DNA from: a virus
Taxonomy: Duplodnaviria; Heunggongvirae; Uroviricota; Caudoviricetes
Length of the DNA stretch: 29,630 bases
Virus record (IMG/VR): IMGVR_UViG_2693429622_000002
Strand: one strand, 5' to 3'
Below the pieces are notes generated by a model. That model saw only the letters and a list, made by a program, of their open reading frames with translations. It was not told where the DNA came from and did no database searches. Positions 11,659 through 29,630 of this stretch are shown here, piece after piece. The position numbers and the translations under genes were made by a program. Position 1 is the stretch's first letter; every line of letters starts with the position of its first letter.

Positions 11659-14212
11659 ACCGGTAGGCGATCTGGTCGTTGATTTGAGTCTGGATGCGGC
11701 CAGATTTGACGAGCAGATGGCCAGAGTCAGGCGTCATTTTTCCGGTACGGAAAGTGATGCGAAAAAAACAGCGGCAGTCGTTGAACAGTCGCTGAGCCGA
11801 CAGGCGCTGGCTGCACAGAAAGCGGGGATTTCCGTCGGGCAGTATAAAGCCGCCATGCGTATGCTGCCTGCACAGTTCACCGACGTGGCCACGCAGCTTG
11901 CAGGGGGGCAGAATCCCTGGCTGATCCTGCTGCAACAGGGTGGTCAGGTTAAGGACTCCTTCGGCGGGATGATCCCCATGTTCAGGGGGCTTGCCGGCGC
12001 GATCACCCTGCCGATGGTGGGGGCCACCTCGCTGGCGGTGGCGACCGGTGCGCTGGCGTATGCCTGGTATCAGGGCAACTCAACCCTGTCCGATTTCAAC
12101 AAAACGCTGGTCCTTTCCGGTAATCAGGCGGGACTGACGGCAGATCGTATGCTGGTCCTGTCCAGAGCCGGGCAGGCGGCAGGGCTGACGTTTAACCAGA
12201 CCAGCGAGTCACTCAGCGCACTGGTTAAGGCGGGGGTAAGCGGTGAGGCTCAGATTGCGTCCATCAGCCAGAGTGTGGCGCGTTTCTCCTATGCATCCGG
12301 CGTGGAGGTGGACAAGGTCGCTGAAGCCTTCGGGAAGCTGACCACAGACCCGACGTCGGGGCTGACGGCGATGGCACGCCAGTTCCATAACGTGACGGCG
12401 GAGCAGATTGCGTATGTTGCTCAGTTGCAGCGTTCCGGCGATGAAGCCGGGGCATTGCAGGCGGCGAACGAGGCCGCAACGAAAGGGTTTGATGACCAGA
12501 CCCGCCGCCTGAAAGAGAACATGGGCACGCTGGAGACCTGGGCAGACAGGACTGCACGTGCATTCAAATCCATGTGGGATGCGGTGCTGGATATTGGTCG
12601 TCCTGATACCGCGCAGGAGATGCTGATTAAGGCAGAGGCTGCGTTTAAGAAAGCAGACGACATCTGGAATCTGCGCAAGGATGATTATTTCGTTAACGAT
12701 GAAGCACGGGCGCGTTACTGGGATGATCGTGAAAAAAAACGCCTGGAGCGGGATGCAGCCCAAAAGAGGGTAGATCAACAGCGTCAACAGGACAAAAATG
12801 CGCAGCAGCAGAGCGATACCGAAGCGTCACGGCTGAAATATACCGAAGAGGCGCAGAAGGCTTACGAACGGCTGCAGACGCCGCTGGAGAAATATACCGC
12901 CCGTCAGGAAGAACTGAACAAGGCACTGAAAGACGGAAAAATCCTGCAGGCAGATTACAACACGCTGATGGCGGCGGCGAAAAAGGATTATGAAGCGACG
13001 CTGAAAAAGCCGAAACAGTCCGGCGTGAAGGTGTATGCGGGCGATCGTCAGGAAGACAGTGCTCATGCGGCCCTGCTGACGCTTCAGGCAGAACTCCGGA
13101 CGCTGGAGAAGCATGCCGGAGCGAATGAGAAAATCAGCCAGCAGCGCCGGGATTTGTGGAAGGCAGAAAGTCAGTTCGCGGTACTGGAGGAGGCGGCACA
13201 ACGTCGCCAGCTGTCCGCACAGGAGAAATCCCTGCTGGCGCATAAAGACGAGACGCTGGAGTACAAACGCCAGCTGGCTGCACTTGGTGACAAGGTTACG
13301 TATCAGGAGCACCTGAATGCGCTGGCGCAGCAGGCGGATAAATTCGCACAGCAGCAACGGGCAAAACGGGCAGCCATTGATGCGAAAAACCGGGGGCTGA
13401 CTGACCGGCAGGCAGCGCGGGAAGCCACGGAACAGCGCCTGAAGGAACAGTATGGCGATAATCCTCTGGCGCTGAATAACGTCATGTCAGAGCAGAAAAA
13501 GACCTGGGCGGCTGAAGACCAGCTTCGCGGGAGCTGGATGGCAGGCCTGAAGTCCGGCTGGAGTGAGTGGGAAGAGAGCGCCACGGACAGTATGTCACAG
13601 GTTAAAAGTGCAGCCACGCAGACCTTTGATGGTATTGCACAGAATATGGCGGCGATGCTGACCGGCAGTGAACAGAACTGGCGCAGCTTCACCCGCTCCG
13701 TGCTGTCCATGATGACAGAAATTCTGCTTAAGCAGGCAATGGTGGGGATTGTCGGGAGTATCGGCAGCGCCATTGGCGGGGCTGTTGGTGGCGGCGCATC
13801 CGCGTCAGGTGGTACAGCCATTCAGGCCGCTGCGGTGAAATTCCATTTTGCAACCGGGGGATTTACGGGAACCGGCGGCAAATATGAGCCAGCGGGGATT
13901 GTTCACCGTGGTGAATTTGTCTTCACGAAGGAGGCAACCAGCCGGATTGGCGTGGGGAATCTCTACCGGCTGATGCGCGGCTATGCGGAAGGTGGTTATG
14001 TGGGCGGTGCCGGAAGTCCGGCGCAGATGCGGCGGGCTGAAGGCATTAATTTTAATCAGAACAATCACGTGGTGATTCAGAACGACGGTACGAATGGTCT
14101 GCCAGGTCCACAGATGATGAAGGCCGTGTATGACATGGCCCGCAAGGGTGCCCGTGATGAAATTCAGACACAGATGCGTGATGGTGGCCTGTTCTCCGGA
14201 GGTGGACGATGA
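11651..14212 (+). CDS. H: Tail tape measure protein H (853 aa)
   Basis: 853 aa as in lambda gpH; helical Ala/Gln/Glu-rich centre and Gly-rich C-terminal region. Confidence 0.95.
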   Translation: MAEPVGDLVVDLSLDAARFDEQMARVRRHFSGTESDAKKTAAVVEQSLSRQALAAQKAGISVGQYKAAMRMLPAQFTDVATQLAGGQNPWLILLQQGGQVKDSFGGMIPMFRGLAGAITLPMVGATSLAVATGALAYAWYQGNSTLSDFNKTLVLSGNQAGLTADRMLVLSRAGQAAGLTFNQTSESLSALVKAGVSGEAQIASISQSVARFSYASGVEVDKVAEAFGKLTTDPTSGLTAMARQFHNVTAEQIAYVAQLQRSGDEAGALQAANEAATKGFDDQTRRLKENMGTLETWADRTARAFKSMWDAVLDIGRPDTAQEMLIKAEAAFKKADDIWNLRKDDYFVNDEARARYWDDREKKRLERDAAQKRVDQQRQQDKNAQQQSDTEASRLKYTEEAQKAYERLQTPLEKYTARQEELNKALKDGKILQADYNTLMAAAKKDYEATLKKPKQSGVKVYAGDRQEDSAHAALLTLQAELRTLEKHAGANEKISQQRRDLWKAESQFAVLEEAAQRRQLSAQEKSLLAHKDETLEYKRQLAALGDKVTYQEHLNALAQQADKFAQQQRAKRAAIDAKNRGLTDRQAAREATEQRLKEQYGDNPLALNNVMSEQKKTWAAEDQLRGSWMAGLKSGWSEWEESATDSMSQVKSAATQTFDGIAQNMAAMLTGSEQNWRSFTRSVLSMMTEILLKQAMVGIVGSIGSAIGGAVGGGASASGGTAIQAAAVKFHFATGGFTGTGGKYEPAGIVHRGEFVFTKEATSRIGVGNLYRLMRGYAEGGYVGGAGSPAQMRRAEGINFNQNNHVVIQNDGTNGLPGPQMMKAVYDMARKGARDEIQTQMRDGGLFSGGGR

Positions 14213-14538
14213 AAACCTTCCGCTGGAAAGTGAAACCCGGTATGGATGTGGCTTCGGCCCCTTCTGTAAGAAAGGTGCGCTTTGGTGATGGCTATTCCCA
14301 GCGAGCGCCTGCCGGGCTGAATGCCAACCTGAAAACGTACAGCGTGACGCTTTCTGTCCCCCGTGAGGAGGCCATGGTACTGGAGTCGTTTCTGGAAGAG
14401 CACGGGGGCTGGAAAGCCTTTCTGTGGACGCCGCCTTATGAGTGGCGGCAGATAAAGGTGACCTGCGCAAAATGGTCGTCGCGGGTCAGTATGCTGCGTG
14501 TTGAGTTCAGCGCAGAGTTTGAACAGGTGGTGAACTGA
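14209..14538 (+). CDS. M: Tail tip protein M (109 aa)
   Basis: 109 aa, overlaps H stop, lambda synteny. Confidence 0.9.
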   Translation: MKTFRWKVKPGMDVASAPSVRKVRFGDGYSQRAPAGLNANLKTYSVTLSVPREEAMVLESFLEEHGGWKAFLWTPPYEWRQIKVTCAKWSSRVSMLRVEFSAEFEQVVN

Positions 14539-15236
14539 TGCAGGATATCCGGCAGGAAACACTGAATGAATGCACCCGTGCGGAGCAGTCGGCCAGCGTG
14601 GTGCTCTGGGAAATCGATCTGACAGAGGTCGGTGGAGAACGTTATTTTTTCTGTAATGAGCAGAACGAAAAAGGTGAGCCGGTCACCTGGCAGGGGCGAC
14701 AGTATCAGCCGTATCCCATTCAGGGGAGTGGTTTTGAACTGAATGGCAAAGGCACCAGTACGCGCCCCACGCTGATGGTTTCTAACCTGTACGGTATGGT
14801 CACCGGGATGGCGGAAGATCTACAGAGTCTGGTCGGCGGAACGGTGGTCCGGCGTAAGGTTTACGCCCGTTTTCTGGATGCGGTGAACTTCGTCAACGGA
14901 AACAGTGACGCCGATCCGGAGCAGGAGGTGATCAGCCGCTGGCGCATTGAGCAGTGCAGCGAACTGAGCGCGGTGAGTGCCTCTTTTGTACTGTCCACGC
15001 CGACGGAAACAGATGGCGCTGTTTTTCCGGGACGTATCATGCTGGCCAACACCTGCACCTGGACCTATCGCGGCGATGAGTGCGGTTATCACGGTCCGGC
15101 GGTCGCGGATGAATATGACCAGCCAACGTCCGACATCACGAAGGATAAATGCAGCAAATGCCTGAGTGGCTGTAAGTTTCGCAATAACGTCGGCAACTTT
15201 GGCGGCTTCCTTTCCATTAACAAACTTTCGCAGTAA
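14538..15236 (+). CDS. L: Tail tip protein L (232 aa)
   Basis: 232 aa, ATGA overlap with M, lambda synteny. Confidence 0.9.
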   Translation: MQDIRQETLNECTRAEQSASVVLWEIDLTEVGGERYFFCNEQNEKGEPVTWQGRQYQPYPIQGSGFELNGKGTSTRPTLMVSNLYGMVTGMAEDLQSLVGGTVVRRKVYARFLDAVNFVNGNSDADPEQEVISRWRIEQCSELSAVSASFVLSTPTETDGAVFPGRIMLANTCTWTYRGDECGYHGPAVADEYDQPTSDITKDKCSKCLSGCKFRNNVGNFGGFLSINKLSQ

Positions 15237-15241
15237 ATCCC

Positions 15242-15985
15242 ATGACAGAGACAGAATCAGCGATTCTGGCGCACGCCCGGCGATGTGCTCCAGCGGAGTC
15301 GTGCGGCTTCGTGGTAAGAACGCCGGAGGGGGAAAGATATTTCCCCTGCGTGAATATCTCCGGTGAGCCGGAGGCGTATTTCCGTATGTCGCCGGAAGAC
15401 TGGCTGCAGGCAGAGATGCAGGGTGAGATTGTGGCACTGGTCCACAGCCACCCCGGTGGTCTGCCCTGGCTGAGTGAGGCCGACCGGCGGCTGCAGGTGC
15501 AGAGTGATTTGCCGTGGTGGCTGGTCTGCCGGGGGGCGATTCACAAGTTCCGCTGTGTGCCACATCTTACCGGGCGGCGCTTTGAGCACGGGGTGACGGA
15601 CTGTTACACGCTGTTCCGGGATGCTTACCATCTGGCGGGGATTGAGATGCCGGATTTTCATCGTGAGGATGACTGGTGGCGTCACGGTCAGAATCTCTAT
15701 CTGGATAATCTGGAGGCCACAGGGCTGTATCAGGTGCCGTTGTCAGCGGCGCAGCCGGGCGATGTGCTGCTGTGCTGTTTTGGTTCATCGGTGCCGAATC
15801 ATGCCGCCATTTACTGTGGTGACGGCGAGCTGCTGCACCATATTCCTGAACAACTGAGCAAACGAGAGAGGTATACCGACAAATGGCAGCGACGCACACA
15901 CTCCCTCTGGCGTCACCGGGCATGGCACGCATCTGCCTTTACGGGGATTTGCAACGATTTGGCCGCCGCATCGACCTTCGTGTGA
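15242..15985 (+). CDS. K: Tail tip assembly protein K with JAMM/MPN-like and NlpC/P60-like motifs (247 aa ORF; alternative start at 15386 gives the 199-aa form I recall for lambda)
   Basis: HSHPGGLPWLSEAD (H-x-H-x7-S-x2-D, JAMM-like) and Cys/His pattern (TDCYTLF, NHAAIYCGDGELLHH) consistent with NlpC/P60; true start codon uncertain. Confidence 0.85.
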   Translation: MTETESAILAHARRCAPAESCGFVVRTPEGERYFPCVNISGEPEAYFRMSPEDWLQAEMQGEIVALVHSHPGGLPWLSEADRRLQVQSDLPWWLVCRGAIHKFRCVPHLTGRRFEHGVTDCYTLFRDAYHLAGIEMPDFHREDDWWRHGQNLYLDNLEATGLYQVPLSAAQPGDVLLCCFGSSVPNHAAIYCGDGELLHHIPEQLSKRERYTDKWQRRTHSLWRHRAWHASAFTGICNDLAAASTFV

Positions 15986-16554
15986 AAACGGGTGCCGAAG
16001 CCATCCGGGCGATGGCCACACAGCTCCCTGCGTTTCGTCAGAAGCTGAGCGACGGCTGGTATCAGGTGCGTATTGCCGGGCAGGATGTTAGCACGTCCGG
16101 ATTAACGGCACAGTTACATGAGGCTCTGCCTGACGGCGCTGTGATTCATATTGTTCCCAGAGTCGCCGGGGCCAAGTCAGGTGGTGTATTCCAGATTGTC
16201 CTGGGAGCAGCCGCCATTGCCGGATCATTCTTTACCGCCGGAGCCACCCTTGCAGCATGGGGGGCTGCCATTGGTGCCGGTGGTATGACCGGCATTCTGT
16301 TTTCTCTCGGTGCCAGTATGGTGCTCGGCGGTGTGGCTCAGATGCTGGCACCGAAAGCCAGAACTCCCCGCACACAGACAACGGATAACGGTAAGCAGAA
16401 CACCTATTTCTCCTCACTGGATAACATGGTTGCCCAGGGCAATGTTATGCCTGTTCTGTATGGTGAAATGCGCGTGGGGTCACGTGTGGTATCTCAGGAG
16501 ATCAGCACGGCAGACGAAGGGGACGGTGGTCAGGTTGTGGTGATTGGTCGCTGA
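15883..16554 (+). CDS. I: Tail tip assembly protein I (223 aa)
   Basis: 223 aa; overlaps the 3' end of K by about 100 bp in another frame as in lambda. Confidence 0.9.
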   Translation: MAATHTLPLASPGMARICLYGDLQRFGRRIDLRVKTGAEAIRAMATQLPAFRQKLSDGWYQVRIAGQDVSTSGLTAQLHEALPDGAVIHIVPRVAGAKSGGVFQIVLGAAAIAGSFFTAGATLAAWGAAIGAGGMTGILFSLGASMVLGGVAQMLAPKARTPRTQTTDNGKQNTYFSSLDNMVAQGNVMPVLYGEMRVGSRVVSQEISTADEGDGGQVVVIGR

Positions 16555-16614
16555 TGCAAAATGTTTTATGTGAAATCGCCTCCGGGCGGTTTTATCGTTT
16601 ATGGAGCATGACGA

Positions 16615-19600
16615 ATGGGTAAAGGCAGCAGTAAGGGGCATACCCCGCGCGAAGCGAAGGACAACCTGAAGTCCACGCAGCTGCTGAGTGTGATCGATGC
16701 CATCAGCGAAGGGCCGGTTGAAGGTCCGGTGGATGGATTAAAAAGCGTGCTGCTGAACAGTACGCCGGTGCTGGACAGTGAGGGGAATACCAACATCTCC
16801 GGCGTCACGGTGGTGTTCCGGGCAGGTGAGCAGGAGCAGTCACCGCCGGAGGGATTTGAATCCTCCGGCTCCGAGACGGTGCTGGGTACGGAAGTGAAAT
16901 ATGACACGCCGATCACCCGGACCATCACGTCGGCAAACATTGACCGACTGCGTTTTACCTTCGGTGTACAGGCACTGGTGGAAACCACCTCAAAGGGAGA
17001 CAGGAATCCGTCTGAAGTTCGCCTGCTGGTTCAGATACAGCGTAACGGTGGCTGGGTGACGGAAAAAGACATCACCATTAAGGGCAAAACCACCTCGCAG
17101 TATCTGGCCTCGGTGGTGGTGGATAACCTGCCGCCGCGCCCGTTTAATATCCGGATGCGCAGAATGACGCCGGACAGCACCACAGACCAGCTGCAGAACA
17201 AAACGCTCTGGTCGTCATACACCGAAATCATCGATGTGAAACAGTGCTACCCGAACACGGCACTGGTCGGCGTACAGGTGGATTCGGAGCAGTTCGGCAG
17301 CCAGCAGGTGAGCCGTAATTATCATCTTCGCGGGCGCATTCTGCAGGTGCCGTCGAACTATAATCCGCAGACGCGGCAATACAGCGGTATCTGGGACGGA
17401 ACGTTAAAACCGGCATACAGCAACAACATGGCCTGGTGTCTGTGGGATATGCTGACCCATCCGCGCTATGGCATGGGGAAACGTCTTGGTGCGGCAGATG
17501 TGGATAAATGGGCGCTGTATGTCATCGGCCAGTACTGTGACCAGTCGGTGCCGGACGGCTTTGGCAGCACGGAGCCGCGCATCACCTGTAATGCCTGGCT
17601 GACCACACAGCGCAAGGCGTGGGATGTGCTCAGTGATTTCTGCTCGGCGATGCGCTGTATGCCGGTATGGAACGGGCAGACGCTGACGTTCGTGCAGGAC
17701 CGACAGTCGGATAAGGTGTGGGCCTATAACCGCAGTAATGTGGTGATGCCGGATGATGGCGCGCCGTTCCGCTACAGTTTCAGCGCCCTGAAAGACCGCC
17801 ATAATGCCGTTGAGGTGAACTGGATTGACCCAGATAACGGCTGGGAGACGGCGACAGAGCTTGTGGAGGATACGCAGGCCATTGCCCGTTACGGTCGTAA
17901 TGTCACGAAGATGGATGCCTTTGGCTGTACCAGCCGGGGGCAGGCACACCGCGCCGGGCTGTGGCTGATTAAAACGGAACTGCTGGAGACGCAGACCGTG
18001 GATTTCAGCGTGGGTGCTGAAGGGCTTCGTCATGTACCGGGCGATGTCATTGAAATCTGCGATGATGACTATGCCGGTATCCGCACCGGCGGGCGCGTGC
18101 TGGCGGTGAACAGCCAGACCCGGACGCTGACGCTCGACCGTGAAATCACGCTGCCATCCTCCGGCACCACGCTGATAAGCCTGGTTGACGGGCAGGGGAA
18201 TCCGGTCAGCGTGGAGGTCCAGTCCGTCACCGACGGCGTGAAGGTAAAAGTGAGCCGTGTTCCTGACGGTGTTGCTGAATACAGCGTGTGGGGGCTGAAG
18301 CTGCCGACGCTGCACCAGCGATTGTTCCGCTGCGTGAGTATCCGTGAGAACGACGACGGCACGTATGCCATCACCGCCGTGCAGCATGTGCCGGAAAAAG
18401 AAGCCATCGTGGATAACGGGGCGCACTTTGACGGCGACCAGAGCGGCACGGTGAATGGTGTCACGCCGCCAGCGGTGCAGCACCTGACTGCCGAAGTCAC
18501 CGCAGACAGCGGGGAATATCAGGTGCTGGCGCGCTGGGACACGCCGAAGGTGGTGAAGGGCGTGAGCTTCCTGCTCCGTCTGACCGTAACAGCGGATGAC
18601 GGCAGTGAGCGGCTGGTCAGCACGGCCCGGACGACGGAAACCACTTACCGCTTCACACAACTGGCGCTGGGGAACTACAGGCTGACAGTCCGGGCAGTAA
18701 ATGCGTGGGGGCAGCAGGGCGATCCGGCGTCGGTATCGTTCCGGATTGCCGCACCGGCAGCGCTGTCGCGGATTGAGCTGACGCCGGGCTATTTTCAGAT
18801 AACCGCCACGCCGCATCTTGCGGTTTATGATCCGACGGTACAGTTTGAGTTCTGGTTCTCGGAAAAGCGGATTGCGGATATCAGGCAGGTTGAAACCACA
18901 GCACGCTATCTTGGCACGGCGCTGTACTGGATAGCCGCCAGTATCAATATCAAACCGGGCCATGATTATTACTTTTATATCCGCAGTGTGAACACCGTTG
19001 GCAAATCGGCATTCGTGGAGGCTGTTGGTCAGCCGAGTGATGATGCATCCGGTTATCTGGATTTTTTCAAAGGCGAGATAGGGAAAACCCATCTGGCTCA
19101 GGAGCTGTGGACGCAGATTGATAACGGTCAGCTTGCGCCTGACCTGGCTGAAATCAGGACGTCCATTACGGATGTCAGCAATGAAATCACGCAGACCGTC
19201 AATAAGAAACTGGAAGACCAGAGTGCGGCAATTCAGCAGATACAGAAGGTTCAGGTTGATACAAATAATAACCTGAACAGCATGTGGGCTGTGAAGCTGC
19301 AGCAGATGCAGGACGGACGCCTTTATATCGCGGGTATTGGTGCCGGTATTGAGAACACCCCTGACGGCATGCAGAGTCAGGTGCTGCTGGCGGCGGACAG
19401 GATTGCGATGGTTAATCCTGCGAATGGCAACACAAAACCGATGTTTGTTGGTCAGGGCGATCAGATATTCATGAACGACGTGTTCCTGAAACGCCTGACG
19501 GCCCCCACCATTACCAGCGGTGGAAATCCATCGGCATTTTCCCTGACTCCGGACGGAAAGCTGACCGCTAAAAATGCGGATATCAGTGGCAGTGTGAATG

Positions 19601-20112
19601 CGAACGCCGGGACGCTCAACAATGTCACGGTAAATGAAAACTGTACGATTAAGGGCATGCTGGAGGCGACTCAGGTCAGAGGTGACTTCGTTAAAGCTGT
19701 ATCCAAATCATTTCCGAAACAGGCTGGTACGTGGGGTAACACGGAAACACCAAACGGGACGGTTACAGTCACCATAAGCGATGATCATAACTTTGACCGC
19801 CAGATTATTATTCCGCCCATTATTTTTAACGGTATAGCGTATGACGATCCGGGGAGCGGAAATAACCCAGGAGGCACGCGATACACGGGTTATGGTTTTG
19901 AAGTTCGCAAAAACGGCGTATTAATCGCATCCAGAGAAACTAAAGGTGCCATTCCCGGTAGTTACAGTGCAGTTATTGATATGCCTAGTGGTGGTGGTAG
20001 CGTCACTCTGGAGTTTAAGATTTTCCAGAAAGGCAATCAGGGGGCAGGCAATATCACCGACTGTACGGTGATTGTGACCAAAAAAGCGGCTTCCGGCATC
20101 AGTATTCGTTGA
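16615..20112 (+). CDS. J: Central tail fibre / host specificity protein J (1165 aa)
   Basis: Long ORF after I with conserved J N-terminal and central regions; about 33 aa longer than the 1132-aa lambda J I recall, so the C-terminal receptor-binding region is probably different from lambda's. Confidence 0.9.
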
Positions 20113-20134
20113 AATATTTATAACCCCAATAAAT

Positions 20135-20160
20135 GGCGTCAGGAATGACGCCTTTTTTAT
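20135..20160 (+). terminator. Intrinsic terminator after J (GGCGTCA-GGAA-TGACGCC + TTTTTTATT)
   Basis: Perfect 7-bp GC-rich stem and U-tract read directly. Confidence 0.7.
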
Positions 20161-20182
20161 TGCAGAAAAGCGAGAGGTAATT

Positions 20183-20296
20183 ATGCGTAAAGTTTGTGCA
20201 GCCATTTTGTCCGCAGCCATTTGCCTGGCCGTATCCGGTGCGCCTGCATGGGCGTCTGAACATCAGTCCACGCTGAGCGCGGGGTATCTTCATGCC
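20183..20296 (+). CDS. lom: lom 5' fragment (outer-membrane Lom/Ail family), cut by the assembly gap
   Basis: MRKVCAAILSAAICLAVSGAPAWASEHQSTLSAGYLHA, identical to the start of the 24601 copy; runs into the N run. Confidence 0.7.
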
Positions 20297-20307
20297 NNNN
20301 NNNNNNN
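20297..20307. other. Assembly gap (11 N)
   Basis: Run of n characters in the sequence. Confidence 1.
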
Positions 20308-21641
20308 CGCCTGTCACTATTGAACTGATACCGGGGTATTTTCAGATAACGGCGGTCCCGAAACTGGCTGTATATGACCCGACGGTGCAGTTTGAGTTCT
20401 GGTTTTCGGAAAAGCGGATTGCGGATATCAGGCAGGTTGAAACCACAGCACGCTATCTTGGCACGGCGCTGTACTGGATAGCCGCCAGTATCAATATCAG
20501 GCCGGGCCATGATTATTATTTTTACGTTCGCAGTGTGAACACCGTTGGCAAATCGGCATTTGTGGAGGCCATCGGTCGGGCGAGCGATGATGCAGAAGGT
20601 TATCTGAATTTTTATAAAGGGTTGATCAATAAAACGCATCTCGGCAAGGAGTTGTGGACGCAGATTGATAACGGTCAGCTTGCGCCGGACCTGACTGAAA
20701 TCAGGACGTCCATTACGAATGTCAGCAATGAAATCACGCAAACCGTCAATAAAAAACTGGAAAATCAGAGTGCTGCAATCCAGCAGATACAGAAAGTTCA
20801 GGTTGATACAAATAATAACCTGAACAGCATGTGGGCTGTGAAGCTGCAACAGATGAAGGACGGACGCCTTTATATTGCGGGTATCGGTGCCGGTATTGAG
20901 AATACGCCAGCAGGAATGCAGAGTCAGGTGCTGCTGGCGGCAGACAGGATTGCGATGATTAATCCTGCGAATGGCAACACAAAGCCGATGTTTGTTGGTC
21001 AGGGCGATCAGATATTCATGAACGACGTGTTCCTGAAATGCCTGACGGCTCCGACCATTACCAGCGGCGGTAATCCTCCGGCATTTTCCCTGACACCTGG
21101 CGGACGGCTGACGGCGAAAAATGCCGATATCAGCGGTAACGTGAACGCGAACTCCGGGACGCTCAACAACGTCACGATTAATAAGAACTGTCGGGTTCTG
21201 GGAAAATTGTCCGCGAACCAGATTGAAGGCGATCTCGTTAAAACAGTGGGCAAACCTTTCCCACGGGACTCCCGGGCACCGGAGAGGTGGCCATCAGGGA
21301 CCATTACCGTCAGGGTTTATGACGATCAGCCGTTTGATCGGCAAATTGTTATTCCCGCGGTGGCGTTTCGCGGTGCTAAACATGAGCGGAAGAATAACAA
21401 TATTTATTCGTCATGCCGCCTGATAGTGAAGAAAAACGGTGCTGAAATTTATAACCGAACGACCCTGGATAATACGCTGATATATACGGGTGTTATTGAT
21501 ATGCCTGCCGGTCACGGTCACATGACGCTGGAGTTTTCTGTATCGGCATGGCTGGTAAATGGCTGGTATCCCACAGCAAGTATCAGCGATTTGCTGGTTG
21601 TGGTGATGAAGAAAGCCACTGCAGGCATCACGATTAGCTGA
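20308..21641 (+). CDS. J: J 3' fragment, variant allele (C-terminal about 444 aa; distinct receptor-binding tail ending ..[14 protein letters not shown])
   Basis: About 90% nucleotide identity by eye to 18778 onward in the conserved part, diverging strongly over the last 130 codons; 5' end missing at the gap. Confidence 0.8.
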
Positions 21642-21660
21642 ATTTTATAACCCAGATACG

Positions 21661-21686
21661 GGCACCAGAAATGGTGCCTTTTTTAT
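21661..21686 (+). terminator. Intrinsic terminator after variant J (GGCACC-AGAAAT-GGTGCC + TTTTTTATT)
   Basis: Stem differs in sequence from the 20135 copy but base pairing is kept (compensatory changes). Confidence 0.7.
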
Positions 21687-21708
21687 TGCAGAAAAGCGAG
21701 AGGTAATT

Positions 21709-22308
21709 ATGCGTAAAGTTTGTGCAGCCATTTTGTCCGCAGCCATTTGCCTGGCCGTATCCGGTGCGCCTGCATGGGCGTCTGAACATCAGTCCACGCT
21801 GAGCGCCGGGTATCTTCAGACCCATACTGATATGCCAGGCAGCGATGACCTGAAGGGCATTAACGTGAAATACCGTTATGAGTTTACGGACACGCTGGGG
21901 CTGATTACGTCATTCAGTTATGCCAACGCTGAAGATGAGCAAAAAACGCATTACAGCGATACCCGCTGGCATGAGGATTCCGTGCGTAACCGCTGGTTCA
22001 GCGTGATGGCGGGGCCGTCTGTGCGCGTGAATGAATGGTTCAGCGCGTATGCGATGGCGGGCGTGGCTTACAGCCGTGTGTCGACCTTCTCCGGGGATTA
22101 TCTCCGCGTAACTGACAACAAGGGGAAAACGCACGATGTGCTGACCGGAAGTGATGGCGGTCGCCACAGCAACACGTCTCTGGCGTGGGGGGCTGGCGTG
22201 CAGTTTAACCCGACCGAATCCGTGGCCATTGACCTTGCTTATGAAGGTTCCGGCAGTGGTGACTGGCGCACTGACGGTTTCATCGTGGGTGTCGGTTATA
22301 AGTTCTGA
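21709..22308 (+). CDS. lom: Outer membrane protein Lom (Ail/Lom family beta-barrel), intact, 199 aa
   Basis: Signal-peptide-like N-terminus; C-terminus AYEGSGSGDWRTDGFIVGVGYKF matches lambda Lom from memory; GAGAGG RBS. Confidence 0.9.
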   Translation: MRKVCAAILSAAICLAVSGAPAWASEHQSTLSAGYLQTHTDMPGSDDLKGINVKYRYEFTDTLGLITSFSYANAEDEQKTHYSDTRWHEDSVRNRWFSVMAGPSVRVNEWFSAYAMAGVAYSRVSTFSGDYLRVTDNKGKTHDVLTGSDGGRHSNTSLAWGAGVQFNPTESVAIDLAYEGSGSGDWRTDGFIVGVGYKF

Positions 22309-22335
22309 TTAGCCAGGTAACACAGTGTTATGACT

Positions 22336-22361
22336 GCCCGCTGGTTCAGGCGGGCTTTTTG
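22336..22361 (+). terminator. Intrinsic terminator after lom (GCCCGC-TGGTTCA-GGCGGGC + TTTTTGT)
   Basis: Read directly. Confidence 0.7.
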
Positions 22362-22371
22362 TGGGGTGAAT

Positions 22372-22698
22372 ATGGCAGTAAAGATTTCAGGTGTACTGAA
22401 AGATGGGGCGGGTAAACCTGTCGTAAATTGTGCGATTGAACTGCGGGCCAGAAGAACCAGTCCGACCGTTGTGGCACACGTTGTTGCCACTTGCGTGACG
22501 GACAATAACGGTGCTTATGTGATTGAGGCTGAGCCGGGGTATTACGAGGTTGCGCTTCACTGTAACGGCTGGCAGCCAACCCGTGTCGGGGATATTGATG
22601 TGGCACCGACTGATGCACCGGGGACACTGAACGCGTTTCTGAATGCACCAAAGGATGGTGATTTACGTCCGGAGGTGATGAAGTGTCAGCGCCAGTGA
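22372..22698 (+). pseudogene. stf: Side tail fibre stf, variant N-terminal domain, truncated after about 100 codons by an IS21-family insertion
   Basis: [12 protein letters not shown].. aligns with the start of the full stf at 25182 but diverges; reading frame leaves stf-like sequence right after ..DLRPE and stops at 22698 inside the IS-like DNA. Confidence 0.7.
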
Positions 22699-22927
22699 TA
22701 TAAGACGGTAATTCGCCATTTGGATTGTCCGCTCCACCCAACATGTTGTTTCCTTAAGGTTCTCACACCAGAAAGGACATCAACATGCTGAGCAGAGAGG
22801 ACTTTTACATGATAAAGCAAATGCGCCAGCAGGGCGCGTACATCGTCGATATTGCGACTCAGATTGGTTGCTCTGAACGGACGGTCAGACGCTACCTCAA
22901 ATACCCTGAACCGCCAGCCAGAAAGAC
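22684..22927 (+). mobile_element. istA: IS21-family element, 5' end only (terminal sequence plus first 47 codons of istA), cut by the assembly gap
   Basis: ORF 22785-22927 encodes MLSREDFYMIKQMRQQGAYIVDIATQIGCSERTVRRYLKYPEPPARK, which I recognise as an IS21-type IstA N-terminal HTH; boundary near 22676-22684 inferred from where the stf alignment breaks. Confidence 0.65.
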
Positions 22928-22936
22928 NNNNNNNNN
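22928..22936. other. Assembly gap (9 N)
   Basis: Run of n characters in the sequence. Confidence 1.
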
Positions 22937-24530
22937 TCAGGTGCTGGCGCGCTGGGACACGCCGAAGGTGGTGAAGGGCGTGAGCTTCCTGCTCCGTCTG
23001 ACCGTAACAGCGGATGACGGCAGTGAGCGGCTGGTCAGCACGGCCCGGACGACGGAAACCACTTACCGCTTCACACAACTGGCGCTGGGGAACTACAGGC
23101 TGACAGTCCGGGCAGTAAATGCGTGGGGGCAGCAGGGCGATCCGGCGTCGGTATCGTTCCGGATTGCCGCACCGGCAGCGCTGTCGCGGATTGAGCTGAC
23201 GCCGGGCTATTTTCAGATAACCGCCACGCCGCATCTTGCGGTTTATGATCCGACGGTACAGTTTGAGTTCTGGTTCTCGGAAAAGCGGATTGCGGATATC
23301 AGGCAGGTTGAAACCACAGCACGCTATCTTGGCACGGCGCTGTACTGGATAGCCGCCAGTATCAATATCAAACCGGGCCATGATTATTACTTTTATATCC
23401 GCAGTGTGAACACCGTTGGCAAATCGGCATTCGTGGAGGCTGTTGGTCAGCCGAGTGATGATGCATCCGGTTATCTGGATTTTTTCAAAGGCGAGATAGG
23501 GAAAACCCATCTGGCTCAGGAGCTGTGGACGCAGATTGATAACGGTCAGCTTGCGCCTGACCTGGCTGAAATCAGGACGTCCATTACGGATGTCAGCAAT
23601 GAAATCACGCAGACCGTCAATAAGAAACTGGAAGACCAGAGTGCGGCAATTCAGCAGATACAGAAGGTTCAGGTTGATACAAATAATAACCTGAACAGCA
23701 TGTGGGCTGTGAAGCTGCAGCAGATGCAGGACGGACGCCTTTATATCGCGGGTATTGGTGCCGGTATTGAGAACACCCCTGACGGCATGCAGAGTCAGGT
23801 GCTGCTGGCGGCGGACAGGATTGCGATGGTTAATCCTGCGAATGGCAACACAAAACCGATGTTTGTTGGTCAGGGCGATCAGATATTCATGAACGACGTG
23901 TTCCTGAAACGCCTGACGGCCCCCACCATTACCAGCGGTGGAAATCCATCGGCATTTTCCCTGACTCCGGACGGAAAGCTGACCGCTAAAAATGCGGATA
24001 TCAGTGGCAGTGTGAATGCGAACGCCGGGACGCTCAACAATGTCACGGTAAATGAAAACTGTACGATTAAGGGCATGCTGGAGGCGACTCAGGTCAGAGG
24101 TGACTTCGTTAAAGCTGTATCCAAATCATTTCCGAAACAGGCTGGTACGTGGGGTAACACGGAAACACCAAACGGGACGGTTACAGTCACCATAAGCGAT
24201 GATCATAACTTTGACCGCCAGATTATTATTCCGCCCATTATTTTTAACGGTATAGCGTATGACGATCCGGGGAGCGGAAATAACCCAGGAGGCACGCGAT
24301 ACACGGGTTATGGTTTTGAAGTTCGCAAAAACGGCGTATTAATCGCATCCAGAGAAACTAAAGGTGCCATTCCCGGTAGTTACAGTGCAGTTATTGATAT
24401 GCCTAGTGGTGGTGGTAGCGTCACTCTGGAGTTTAAGATTTTCCAGAAAGGCAATCAGGGGGCAGGCAATATCACCGACTGTACGGTGATTGTGACCAAA
24501 AAAGCGGCTTCCGGCATCAGTATTCGTTGA
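22937..24530 (+). CDS. J: J 3' fragment (C-terminal 531 codons), exact duplicate of 18519-20112
   Basis: Nucleotide-identical to the corresponding part of the full J as far as I compared; 5' end missing at the gap. Confidence 0.8.
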
Positions 24531-24552
24531 AATATTTATAACCCCAATAAAT

Positions 24553-24578
24553 GGCGTCAGGAATGACGCCTTTTTTAT
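24553..24578 (+). terminator. Intrinsic terminator after J (duplicate of 20135-20160)
   Basis: Identical hairpin and U-tract. Confidence 0.7.
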
Positions 24579-24600
24579 TGCAGAAAAGCGAGAGGTAATT

Positions 24601-25083
24601 ATGCGTAAAGTTTGTGCAGCCATTTTGTCCGCAGCCATTTGCCTGGCCGTATCCGGTGCGCCTGCATGGGCGTCTGAACATCAGTCCACGCTGAGCGCGG
24701 GGTATCTTCATGCCCGGACCAACGTTCCCGGCAGTGATGATCTGAACGGGATTAACGTGAAATACCGTTATGAGTTTACGGATACGCTGGGGCTGGTGAC
24801 GTCATTCAGCTATGCAGGAGACAAGAATCGCCAGCTGACCCGTTACAGCGATACCCGCTGGCATGAAGATTCCGTGCGTAACCGCTGGTTCAGCGTGATG
24901 GCGGGGCCGTCTGTGCGCGTGAATGAATGGTTCAGCGCGTATGCGATGGCGGGTGTGGCTTACAGCCGTGTGTCGACTTTTTCCGGGGATTATATCCGCG
25001 TAACTGACAATAAGGGGAAAACGCACGATGTGCTGACCGGAAGTGATGACGGTCGCCACAGCAACACGTCTCTGGCGCACTGA
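24601..25083 (+). pseudogene. lom: lom with an 83-bp internal deletion near the 3' end (frameshift, premature stop; C-terminal strands lost)
   Basis: Compared with 21709-22308: ..TCTGGCG[83 bp missing]CACTGACGG..; the deletion is flanked by a CTGGCG direct repeat in the intact copy; ORF ends ..NTSLAH*. Confidence 0.75.
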
Positions 25084-25144
25084 CGGTTTCATCGTGGGTG
25101 TCGGTTATAAATTCTGATTAGCCAGGTAACACAGTGTTATGACA

Positions 25145-25170
25145 GCCCGCCGGTTCAGGCGGGCTTTTTT
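25145..25170 (+). terminator. Intrinsic terminator after lom (GCCCGCC-GGTTCA-GGCGGGC + TTTTTTGT)
   Basis: Read directly. Confidence 0.7.
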
Positions 25171-25181
25171 GTGGGGTGAAT

Positions 25182-28100
25182 ATGGCAGTAAAGATTTCAG
25201 GTGTACTGAAAGACGGCACAGGAAAACCGGTACAGAACTGCACAATCCAGCTGAAAGCAAAACGTAACAGCACCACGGTGGTGGTGAACACGCTGGCCTC
25301 AGAAAATCCGGATGAAGCCGGGCGTTACAGCATGGACGTTGAGTACGGTCAGTACAGCGTTATTCTGTTGGTGGAAGGATTCCCGCCGTCACATGCCGGG
25401 ACCATCACCGTGTATGAAGATTCCCGACCCGGTACGCTGAATGATTTTCTCGGTGCCATGACGGAGGATGATGCCCGTCCGGAGGCACTGCGCCGTTTTG
25501 AGCTGATGGTGGAAGAGGTGGCGCGTAACGCGTCCGCGGTGGCACAGAACACGGCAGCCGCGAAGAAATCAGCCAGCGATGCCAGCACATCAGCCCGTGA
25601 GGCGGCAACCCATGCGACTGATGCTGCAGATTCAGCACGTGCAGCCAGCACGTCAGCCGGACAGGCCGCTTCGTCGGCTCAGTCAGCGTCTTCCAGCGCA
25701 GGAACGGCATCAACAAAGGCCACTGAAGCCTCAAAAAGTGCTGCCGCTGCAGAGTCCTCAAAAAGCGCGGCGGCTACCAGTGCCGGTGCGGCGAAAACGT
25801 TAGAAACGAATGCGGCAGCGTCACAACAATCAGCAGCCACTTCTGCATCCACCGCGACCACGAAAGCGTCAGAAGCTGCCACCTCAGCCCGGGATGCGTC
25901 GGCTTCAAAAGAGGCGGCAAAATCATCAGAAACGAACGCATCATCAAGCGCCAGTAGCGCAGCTTCCTCGGCGACGGCGGCTGCAAATTCTGCGAAGGCG
26001 GCCAAAACGTCCGAGACGAACGCCAGGTCTTCTGAAACGGCAGCGGGACAGAGTGCCTCAGCTGCGGCAGGCTCAAAAACAGCGGCTGCGTCGTCTGCCA
26101 GCGCCGCGTCAACAAGTGCCGGGCAGGCCTCAGCCAGTGCCACCGCCGCCGGAAAATCGGCAGAAAGCGCCGCATCATCCGCTTCAACAGCCACAACGAA
26201 GGCTGGCGAAGCCACTGAGCAGGCCACGGCAGCAGCGAGGTCAGCTTCCGCAGCGAAGACATCCGAAACGAACGCGAAAGCGTCGGAAACCCGTGCAGAA
26301 TCCTCAAAAACGGCTGCCGCATCGTCCGCCAGTTCGGCGGCGTCATCGGCATCATCGGCGTCTGCTTCAAAAGATGAGGCGACCAGACAGGCGTCAGCAG
26401 CGAAGGGCAGCGCCACGACGGCATCCACGAAGGCGACAGAGGCTGCTGGTAGTGCGACGGCAGCAGCTCAGAGCAAAAGTACGGCGGAATCTGCAGCAAC
26501 GCGCGCTGAGACAGCGGCAAAACGGGCAGAGGATATTGCATCCGCCGTGGCGCTTGAGGATGCGAGCACGACGAAAAAGGGGATAGTACAGCTCAGTAGT
26601 GCGACTAACAGCACTTCCGAGTCACTGGCGGCAACACCAAAAGCCGTTAAGGCCGCGTATGACCTGGCTAACGGGAAATACACCGCACAGGATGCAACGA
26701 CAGCACAGAAAGGGATAATCCAGCTAAGCAGCGCGACCAACAGCACGTCTGAAACGCTGGCGGCAACGCCAAAGGCAGTAAAAGCAGCCAATGACAATGC
26801 TGAGAAACGTCTGCAGAAAGATCAGAACGGTGCGGATATCCCTGGCAAAGACACCTTTACGAAAAATATTGGTGCCTGCCGTGCCTTCGGTGGGTCAGTA
26901 AGCACAACAACAGGAAACTGGACGACTGCACAGTTTATCGAGTGGCTGGATTCTCAGGGAGCATTTAACCATCCATACTGGATGTGCAAGGGTTCCTGGT
27001 CTTATGGCAATAATAAAATCATTACTGATACTGGCTGCGGTAATATTCATCTCGCCGGAGCTGTCATTGAAGTAATGGGGATAAAGTCAGCGATGACGAT
27101 CCGCATTACCACTCCGACCACATCCAGCGGTGGCGGAACAACCAACGCCCAGTTTACCTATATTAATCACGGAACAGATTATTCACCTGGCTGGCGAAGG
27201 GACTATAACTCCAGAAATAAGCCAACGGCATCAGAGATCGGGGCGCTACCGTCAGGTGGAACAGCAGTATCATCAGTTAATCTGGCTTCAAAAGGTCGGG
27301 TAGCCGCGCTGACAGACAATACGCAGGGGGCAGCAGGTCTTGAGTTATACGAGGTGTATAACAACGGATATCCAACAGCGTATGGAAATATCATTCACCT
27401 GAAAGGGATGACAGCCGTTGGCGAAGGTGAGTTACTCATCGGCTGGAGTGGTACAAGCGGTGCTCATGCTCCGGCATTTATTCGTTCACGACGGGATACG
27501 ACCGACGCAAACTGGTCGCCGTGGGCGCAGCTTTACACCTCGGCTCATCCTCCTGCAGAGTTTTATCCAGTCGGTGCACCAATCCCGTGGCCATCAGATA
27601 CCGTTCCGTCTGGTTATGCCCTGATGCAGGGGCAGACTTTTGACAAATCTGCTTACCCGAAACTTGCAGCCGCTTATCCGTCAGGCGTGATCCCTGATAT
27701 GCGTGGCTGGACGATTAAGGGCAAGCCCGCCAGTGGTCGTGCCGTATTGTCTCAGGAACAGGATGGCATTAAATCGCACACCCACAGCGCCAGCGCATCC
27801 AGTACGGATTTGGGGACGAAAACCACATCGTCGTTTGATTACGGCACTAAATCCACGAATAACACCGGGGCGCATACGCACAGTCTGAGCGGCTCTACAA
27901 GTTCAGCTGGGGCCCACCAACATAGTCAGACTGGGCCCAGAACGAATAGCGGGAGTCAACCTACTGGAATGTTTCCGGCAGGGAGTACTCAAGTTAGCGG
28001 GACTAATCAGGTTGGTATCAGTGGCTCATTAACCAGTGGCACCTCCCAATGGGTAGGTAAATCATCTTCAGAAGGAAACCATACACACTCACTGTCCGGC

Positions 28101-28265
28101 ACAGCAGCATCTGCGGGTGCACACGCGCATACTGTCGGTATTGGTGCTCATACGCACTCTGTTGCGATTGGTTCACATGGACACACCATCACCGTTAACG
28201 CTGCTGGTAACGCGGAAAACACCGTCAAAAACATCGCATTTAACTATATTGTGAGGCTCGCATAA
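25182..28265 (+). CDS. stf: Side tail fibre protein Stf (about 1027 aa from ATG 25182): N-terminal attachment domain, long Ala/Ser/Thr-rich repetitive shaft, C-terminal tip with repeated His-x-His motifs
   Basis: N-terminus [67 protein letters not shown] matches lambda Stf from memory; tip motifs [52 protein letters not shown] at about 27770-28195; GTG at 25176 is likely a track artefact. Confidence 0.9.
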
Positions 28266-28846
28266 TGGCATTCAGAATGAGTGAACAAGCACGGACCATA
28301 AAAATTTATAACCTGCTGGCCGGAACTAATGAATTTATTGGTGAAGGTGACGCATATATTCCGCCTCATACAGGTCTGCCTGCAAACAGTACCGATATTG
28401 CACCGCCAGATATTCCGGCTGGTTTCGTGGCTGTTTTCAACAGTGATGAGTCATCGTGGCATCTCGTTGAAGATCATCGGGGTAAAACGGTTTATGACGT
28501 GGCTTCCGGCGACGCGTTATTTATTTCTGAACTCGGCTCATTACCGGAAAATGTCACCTGGTTATCCCCGGAAGGGGAGTTTCAGAAGTGGAACGGCACA
28601 GCCTGGGTGAAGGATACGGAAGCAGAAAAACTGTTCCGGATCCGGGAGGCGGAAGAAACAAAAAACAGCCTGATGCAGGTAGCCAGTGAGCATATAGCGC
28701 CGCTTCAGGATGCTGTGGATCTGGAGATCGCAACGGAGAAAGAAACCTTGTTGCTGGAAGCTTGGAAAAAGTATCGGGTGTTGCTGAACCGTGTTGATAC
28801 ATCAACTGCACCGGATATTGAATGGCCAGTAGCACCTATAGGGTAA
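28265..28846 (+). CDS. tfa: Tail fibre assembly chaperone Tfa (193 aa)
   Basis: [54 protein letters not shown] matches lambda Tfa from memory; ATG overlaps the stf stop (TAATG). Confidence 0.9.
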
Positions 28847-28930
28847 ATTCGTAATGATTACCTAAATACGTTATTCTTTTGTTAAAAAAGTGATTTTGCT
28901 ATAGGTAGGGAGTATGTTCTTGGATTAAGA

Positions 28931-28962
28931 ATAAAAAATCGCCATGAAAGAGCTTCATGGCG
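28931..28962 (-). terminator. Intrinsic terminator oriented for leftward transcription (CGCCATGAA-AGAGC-TTCATGGCG, then T-run on the minus strand)
   Basis: Perfect 9-bp inverted repeat at 28940-28962; on the minus strand it is followed by ATTTTTTAT (plus 28931-28939). Implies a leftward transcript originating to the right. Confidence 0.5.
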
Positions 28963-29630
28963 AGTACATAAACGTACAAAATGTGATGAAAGTAGAGTGG
29001 CGTAAGCCACTATATTAAGATATGACAATAGCGAAGAAAAGTAAATAACATTTTATGGACGTTTAATTGTTAATTATAAAAACTAGAGTGCCCGATATTG
29101 TTTATCTTGCTTTAAAATAATGTACTCAAACCAAATTTTTGAGCTAAAAGCTCAAATAATATAAATGCAATAATAATGTTTAATAAGACAATTAGCTTGC
29201 TTTGTATTTTCATTTCGGAATACTGTTAAGTAACTTTGATGACCCTAACAATAGATCGGAATTTTCTTAGAGTCAATGGTCACTGTTTTTGCTTGCAAAG
29301 CAAATGTTTTGGTGGTTATAAGTCGTCTTAATATAGTCACGCATGCAACTTGTTCCATGCGGAGATTAAAGATTGGAATATAACGCGAAGATGGAATTAA
29401 ATTACATTTGCAATAATTAATTTATTATTACTCAATAATTACCGATATTATTATTGTAAATTAATCATTAGAATGCAAAAAGAAATGTAACGGCAAAATA
29501 AGAGGACGATAGCTGAGAAAAAAGCGTGCTTTCCCAATCTGGGGCAAATCACGTCTGAATGACACCTGAAAACAGGTGGTAGCCTCAAGAAGGCTGGTGA
29601 TGCTGCCAACTTACTGATTTAGTGTATGAT

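Follow-up and report, generated by a model that had tools for sequence, protein, structure and literature searches.

Can one prophage hold two alternative receptor-binding ends of its tip attachment protein J side by side? The question is raised by a 29,630-nucleotide (nt) stretch of phage DNA (Caudoviricetes; IMG/VR record IMGVR_UViG_2693429622_000002), which was analysed over its full length and is called the window hereafter. In the window, a full-length J gene (J1) is followed by the 3′ part of another J gene (J2), and an earlier sequence-only reading took the two for module swaps lying next to each other. Our analysis gave a different answer. Very probably, the window is composed of three separately assembled pieces joined by runs of N, and what it contains are two prophages of one genome with different J-tip alleles, not one locus.

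Assembly of the window

An exact-protein look-up with J1 identified the window as the entire draft scaffold CXCO01000046.1 (29,630 bp) of GCA_001252995.1. A script scan for non-ACGT letters found only two N-runs, one of 11 N at 20297–20307 (scaffold join 1) and one of 9 N at 22928–22936 (scaffold join 2). They split the window into segA (1–20296), segB (20308–22927) and segC (22937–29630). As revealed by BLAST, segC opens with 1778 nt that repeat the end of segA at 100% identity (22937–24714 equals 18519–20296). This plus-strand duplicate, an artefactual second copy, contains J1 codons 636–1165, the intergenic region and the start of lom; its J part (22937–24530) is the third J piece in the window and an exact suffix of the J1 protein.

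Two loci of chromosome CBDDMI010000001.1, L015 (1,270,390–1,282,872) and L007 (1,948,712–1,969,080), account for the three pieces. By BLAST, window 14183–20296 corresponds to L015 1–6114 at 99.95% and window 22937–29630 to L015 4337–11030 at 100%; both copies of the duplicated 1778-nt stretch map to one single L015 stretch. L015 is a contiguous H-M-L-K-I-J(1165)-lom(160)-stf-tfa locus without insert. Because segA and segC both map to this contiguous locus, they are one locus whose overlap was written twice. The flanks of the first N-run map to different chromosomal loci: window 20308–22927 corresponds to L007 7979–10598, gap-free and at 99.81%, inside the region of a J of 1159 amino acids (aa). 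The J1 and J2 loci are ∼680 kb apart on the chromosome.

The same arrangement was observed in other genomes. Two more chromosome-sized contigs carry both loci (L010/L016 and L011/L018), and in HE616528.1, which is Shigella sonnei 53G (PMC5447701), the J1 locus (L017) is contiguous and maps in the same way as L015. The J1-type locus of a 96% related Escherichia coli prophage (L004) is likewise contiguous. In the chromosome-sized contigs, the 160-aa lom lies between the 1165-aa J and a 1027-aa side fibre with its 193-aa assembly protein. The L015 and L007 mapping thus identifies the placing of a J fragment beside the full-length J, as described in the sequence-only reading, as a scaffolding artefact. 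The start of the J2 fragment is an N-run and not a biological boundary, and the ATG at 20292 results from reading across the Ns. Two open reading frames (ORFs), of 449 aa (20292–21641) and 581 aa (22785–24530), are read-throughs of the N-runs; the latter joins the N-terminus of an IS21 transposase to the C-terminal half of J1, and both are also found among the public record's own gene calls.

Very probably, the scaffold arose as follows. Pieces A and C belong to the same locus of a lambda-type prophage (J1-lom-stf-tfa) and overlap by 1778 nt; piece B, from a cryptic prophage degraded by insertion sequences (IS), was misplaced between them because J and lom of the two prophages are near-repeats. 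The Shigella sonnei-like source genome would then carry two full-length J genes, the shafts of which are ∼90% identical. Since records with adjacent WGS prefixes (CXBN, CXBR, CXBV and CXDS) are S. sonnei drafts from Holt et al. 2012 (PMC5447701), the scaffold very probably stems from the same set. The end of segB is a typical contig break, owing to the multi-copy IS21-family element located there. Homologue searches with the J1 tip returned clusters of hundreds to more than 1000 C-terminal fragments named ‘host specificity protein J, partial’ on sub-kb draft contigs, and J is therefore a routine break point in draft assemblies. The clusters have up to 1400 members and come from E. coli, E. albertii and Shigella drafts; chimeric calls that fuse J tips to unrelated N-termini were observed as well. 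Both the partial-J clusters and the chimeric J calls are a systematic annotation artefact.

J1 and J2 share the shaft and differ in the tip

J1 (16615–20112, plus strand; called as an ORF and by Pfam) encodes a full-length tip attachment or central tail fibre protein J of 1165 aa. Its Pfam matches are, in order, FNIII-A_GpJ (PF24801), Phage-tail_3 (PF13550), Ig_J (PF24421), Ig_J_second (PF24489), Phage_Tail_Tip (PF09327) and Ig_GpJ_C (PF12421). The J2 piece (20308–21641, plus strand) comprises the last 443 codons of the J gene of the other, cryptic prophage, as assigned by Pfam and the chromosome match, and contains Ig_J_second (PF24489), Phage_Tail_Tip (PF09327) and Ig_GpJ_C (PF12421). Over the 443 shared residues, which 20310–21638 encodes in J2, the two proteins are 72% identical (BLASTP), and this identity is very unevenly distributed. 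In a MAFFT alignment of J1, J2 and the J proteins of lambda, 21 and 434, the 288 shaft residues from ELTPGY to the shaft end are 89.9% identical between J1 and J2, whereas the tips, the last ∼150 residues from NC(T/R)..G on, are only 41.2% identical and differ by three indels; global pairwise alignment of the tips gave 42.6%. The DNA is in line with the proteins: it is 88.8% identical over 873 nt (18772–19644 versus 20319–21191, BLAST), has no BLAST match across the following ∼430 nt (19645–20073 versus 21192–21602), and returns to 88.6% from the last ∼40 nt of J via the intergenic region into lom. The contrast between shaft and tip is far beyond chance. The two copies are thus alike and then sharply divergent at their C-termini, as the sequence-only reading had put it, and the C-terminal strings quoted there are correct.

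The divergent block had also been named as the region that sets receptor specificity, and this assignment was confirmed for both copies by Pfam and by structure matches. Both tips match PF12421, ‘Tip attachment protein J, C-terminal receptor binding domain’, and both match, along their full length, solved receptor-binding domains (RBDs), those of lambda gpJ (8xcj, 8xck and 8iyk) and of ‘A8 gpJ 713’ (9wca and 9wcb). The RBD of J1 is 157 aa in length (19639–20109, plus strand) and of phage-434 type, as assigned from identity and an AlphaFold2 (AF2) model; that of J2, assigned from identity, is 151 aa in length (21186–21638, plus strand) and is a distant relative of the phage 21 and A8 tips. The AF2 model of the J1 tip has a mean predicted local distance difference test score (pLDDT) of 74, which is of moderate confidence and derives from a shallow alignment of mostly near-identical partial fragments. 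Its top four Foldseek matches are all lambda or A8 gpJ structures, with E-values of ∼1e-14 and template modelling (TM) scores of ∼0.67; the best are 8xck and 9wcb, the latter being A8 gpJ bound to OmpC of EDL933 (PDB entry).

The two tips are diverged alleles of one Ig-like domain, not unrelated modules. Four most divergent or indel-containing blocks alternate with the conserved strand motifs FDRQI, KNG, VIDMP.G.G and KKA..GI, a pattern that would fit specificity borne by loops. The sequence-only reading had named, as the finding that would speak against it, a single domain with scattered substitutions. A single domain is what we found, since both tips match PF12421; the substitutions, in turn, are not scattered, as the J1 tip is 434-like and its shaft is 21-like.

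Relatives and predicted receptors of the two tips

Sliding DNA identity was used to follow the relatives of J1 along the gene. The first 2.4 kb are about 95–97% identical to lambda, 434 and 21 alike. From 19015 to 19494, J1 is 96% identical to phage 21 and only 22–75% identical to 434 and lambda; from 19615 to 20074, it is 87–98% identical to 434 and 36–62% identical to 21 and lambda. At the protein level, the J1 tip is 95.5% identical to the phage 434 tip over 157 aa, with no indels between them, and 41–43% identical to the J2, phage 21 and lambda tips. Different from the tip, the shaft is 95% phage-21-like and 75% 434-like. To judge from these identities, J1 is clearly a mosaic of natural origin, with a shaft like that of phage 21 and a tip of phage-434 type; such phylogenetic incongruence between tip and shaft calls for recombination. 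The J copies are thus module swaps in kind, in agreement with the sequence-only reading.

We infer receptor usage from homology to phages with assigned receptors. When lambda J is replaced by 434 J, the receptor changes from LamB to OmpC, and the C-terminus sets the specificity (PMC3509688, PMC11101478). J1 is predicted to dock on the porin OmpC, because of the 95.5% tip identity to 434 and the literature on 434.

The J2 tip has no such close relative with an assigned receptor. It is 66–67% identical to phage 21, 64% identical to A8 gpJ (PDB 9wca, E 1e-51) and 40–43% identical to lambda and J1; its identity to any RBD with an assigned receptor is at most 67%. Phage 21 uses LamB, and one J mutation adds OmpC (PMC11336670); A8 gpJ targets OmpC (PMC11338833). 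The phage 21 and A8 tips are 82% identical and use different receptors, so the porin target of J2, be it LamB, OmpC or another, is not readable from similarity. Tips of 92–95% identity (tblastn) belong to J of vB_EcoS-640R1, PPompW, several Shiga toxin (Stx) 2a-converting phages, PhiR5_1 and P-EibA. No receptor data were found for these phages, nor, in the literature, for named phages with such tips (Evi, Tritos and the PhiR series). That the J2 C-terminus is lambda's own LamB-binding tip was considered and rejected, as tblastn and alignment gave only 40–43% identity to lambda. The proposed redirection of adsorption by the swap therefore holds for J1 by homology only (434 type, with OmpC from the literature) and does not extend to J2 by similarity.

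The receptor of the J2-type tip might also be neither LamB nor OmpC but a different outer-membrane protein, with the cryptic S. sonnei prophage as a standing donor of that specificity to the resident 434-type phage or to an incoming one through a double crossover in the conserved flanks; we regard this extended scenario as rather unlikely.

Tip exchange and its frequency

The trimeric J fibre ends in three RBDs, the distal loops of which insert into the porin trimer, and this binding sets off the rearrangements by which the tail opens (PMC11101478). Particles are retargeted to OmpC when natural gpJ C-termini are grafted onto lambda J at residue 964 (PMC11338833). This chimera junction lies shortly before the RBD, which starts at about lambda residue 981. 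In the window, a variable cassette of ∼430 nt is bracketed by conserved sequence: upstream by the end of the β-prism shaft, downstream by the final ∼40 nt of J together with the intergenic region and lom. Homologous recombination among co-resident or infecting lambdoid phages could therefore swap it, a route of J host-range modularity that has long been known. Efficient homologous recombination usually needs roughly 25–30 nt of identity. Beside the tip cassette, exact-match runs between J1 and J2 reach 94 nt upstream and 131 nt downstream. Since these runs exceed ∼25–30 nt, a prophage could plausibly exchange its tip with a co-resident prophage or with a superinfecting phage. Actual recombination we infer from the mosaic of J1, which shows that tip exchange has occurred in nature. 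The idea that the two alleles, residing in prophages of one genome, form a substrate for host-range recombination held up in the related chromosomes, where they lie ∼680 kb apart and exchange is mechanistically possible.

Both tips are common. Among 5426 complete E. coli genomes, a 429-nt J1-specific block is present in 2106 (39%) and a 411-nt J2-specific block in 3365 (62%), the latter with up to nine copies per genome. It follows from these counts that no fewer than 45 genomes contain both blocks; the number is probably far higher than 45. That lambdoid phages exchange the J RBD as a module has been clear since the work on lambda h434; tip swapping, the two alleles and their presence in one genome are all ordinary and have been described before. 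The modularity of the J tip is now exploited for engineered delivery particles (PMC11338833). Two practical points follow from the window. When a draft assembly shows a truncated J beside a full one, the arrangement should not be taken for biology, since contigs habitually break at J and lom where a genome contains several lambdoid prophages. A receptor assignment for the widespread J2-type tip would improve the prediction of host range for many Stx and other lambdoid prophages.

Alternative explanations

If the arrangement in the window were real, a single prophage would hold tandem J 3′ cassettes (J1, the J2 3′ piece and a second J1 3′ piece), generated by illegitimate recombination or duplication and offering alternative tips at one locus. 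The three J pieces do share strand and order on a single record, each followed by its own lom, but each of the two junctions falls on one of the only two N-runs of the whole 29.6 kb, and junction 2 would join codon 47 of an IS21 transposase to the middle of J. The related complete chromosomes have segA and segC contiguous and segB elsewhere, and L004 is contiguous too. A synthetic query across the lom-to-J junction was searched against the 5426 complete E. coli genomes; its best rows span 583–740 nt, not the 400 nt expected if the two parts abut. We consider such a tandem array very improbable. Programmed switching of host range, by C-termini that an invertase exchanges (as in the Mu G segment and the P1 C segment) or by diversification with a reverse transcriptase, resembles the window only superficially, in that alternative C-terminal modules lie near one another. 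The proximity of J1 and J2 is itself an artefact and the copies are direct, not inverted; moreover, no recombinase, invertase or reverse-transcriptase family was found among the called genes of L006 (window 6615–29630) or in Pfam scans of the large upstream ORFs. The probability of this explanation is close to nil. Another explanation concerns the tips alone: the same domain could have drifted by point substitution under diversifying selection, without any exchange of modules. Both tips match PF12421, can be aligned end to end and keep the core motifs, as drift would require. However, identity falls from ∼90% to ∼41% over a stretch of about 30 codons and is regained in the final ∼40 nt of the gene; the J1 tip is 95.5% identical to 434 next to a shaft that is 75% 434-like and 95% 21-like; and the J2-type tip occurs at 92–95% identity in unrelated Stx and other phages. 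Drift without exchange is hardly credible in view of this pattern.

Four points weigh against our own reading, that of two prophages with different tip alleles brought together by scaffolding. There is no long exact repeat at the ends of the pieces: comparison of J1 with the full-length J2 of a related chromosome gave only runs of 40–158 nt, none of them at the ends. The route by which a scaffolder or gap-filler would have made the 1778-nt duplication was deduced from the assembled sequence. Co-residence and separation of the two loci are seen in related complete chromosomes, the segments of which are 99.8–100% identical to the window, and would extend to the source strain, which is not closed. 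As for the receptor, the seven substitutions of J1 in 157 residues compared to 434 could in principle matter for the use of OmpC, because in phage 21 and in lambda a single J mutation is enough to alter which receptor is used.

Other features of the two prophages

Upstream of J1, the plus strand carries Nu1, terminase A, portal, S49 protease, capsid E, the tape measure protein H (853 aa), M, L, K and I, apparently a complete lambda-type late operon. The place of J1 in it fits a lambda-type J, with the order H-M-L-K-I-J followed by lom and the side tail fibre genes. J1 is followed by a terminator-like hairpin, the first 113 nt of lom, the 11 Ns and then mid-J sequence. This lom start (20184–20296, plus strand) is cut by the scaffold gap, and the source record calls a 38-aa Ail_Lom product from it. 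The lom of the J1 prophage, lom1 (24601–25083, plus strand), encodes a truncated Ail/Lom protein of 160 aa, as assigned by Pfam; the same product directly follows the 1165-aa J in complete chromosomes. The gene region (24601–25117) was shortened by an internal deletion or frameshift near the 3′ end, and the normal last codons (…GFIVGVGYKF and stop) are present out of frame 3′ of lom1. As more than 1200 index blocks of public assemblies list the 160-aa product, it represents a widespread allele rather than a sequencing error. The J1 prophage continues with a side tail fibre of 1029 aa and a 193-aa tail fibre assembly protein (25176–28846, plus strand), which match Pfam phage_tail_N, Phage_fiber_2, Collar and Caudo_TAP. 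A DUF1398 gene is located on the minus strand at 210–635. The G+C content is 36–44% at the scaffold ends (1–1200 and 28850–29630) versus 50–60% in the phage late genes, and IS1 follows the right end of the scaffold in related chromosomes.

In the J2 prophage, J is followed by lom2 (21709–22308, plus strand), an intact Ail/Lom gene of 199 aa (Pfam Ail_Lom model positions 1–199 of 199), and by an IS-truncated gene for the N-terminus of the side tail fibre (22330–22698, plus strand; Pfam phage_tail_N positions 1–104 of 134). At 22674–22927 (plus strand), the left end of an IS21-family element, the N-terminus of istA (MLSREDFYMIKQMRQQ...), interrupts the side tail fibre gene after 122 codons and runs into the gap. 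Its sequence has 98.4% identity to istA genes annotated as IS21-family in many E. coli genomes, where up to 15 copies occur in a single genome; in complete E. coli prophages, the match to segB stops at about 22683. The 122-aa stub product recurs in the cryptic prophage of complete chromosomes. In several complete S. sonnei-type chromosomes, the IS21 insertion in stf is a fixed feature of the cryptic prophage, and IS3-family elements in turn interrupt the IS21 there.

Full-length J2 (1159 aa) sits in M-L-K-I-J-lom-stf order in related chromosomes. The order in L007 is the antiterminator Q region, IS elements, M, L, K, I, the 1159-aa J, lom (199 aa), the 122-aa stf stub, the IS21 fragment, more IS elements and a sit-like ATP-binding cassette (ABC) transporter. 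The operon of this iron/manganese transporter (L007 15342–18791) adjoins the prophage. In phage 21, sitD comes right behind the tail fibre genes (L002 9968–10001). These observations suggest that the cryptic prophage and phage 21 share the sit cargo region as well as the J shaft. In E. coli CFSAN029787 (NZ_CP011416.1, L005 10231–11873), a prophage with a 99–100% identical J2-type tip carries a frameshifted gene for an ipaH-family type III secretion system effector just 3′ of its tail fibre genes.

Comparison with known J proteins

The RBD of lambda gpJ, which binds LamB (8xck and 8xcj), belongs to the same domain family as the window tips and has the same fold (phmmer E 5e-22 to 5e-30; Foldseek E 8e-15, TM 0.67), and it is located at the end of the β-prism shaft, as in the window J genes. 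Compared to lambda, however, either window tip is only 40–43% identical, and neither is the LamB-binding lambda allele. Among RBDs with assigned receptors, those of phage 21 (LamB) and of the A8 gpJ chimera (OmpC; 9wca and 9wcb) are the closest to J2 and belong to the same Ig-like fold family; the phage 21 shaft is 91–95% identical to both window J genes. Different from phage 21 and A8, about one third of the J2 RBD residues are changed, and there is an additional indel of 5–6 residues. The closest counterpart of the J1 tip is J of phage 434 (OL657226, coding sequence 15505–18918), the host-range determinant of h434. The last 157 residues of 434 J share all indels with the J1 tip, and the gene order J-lom-stf is the same in phage 434 and the J1 prophage. 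Unlike that of 434, the J1 shaft (19015–19494) is phage-21-like and contains a 28-residue stretch that is absent from both 434 and lambda.

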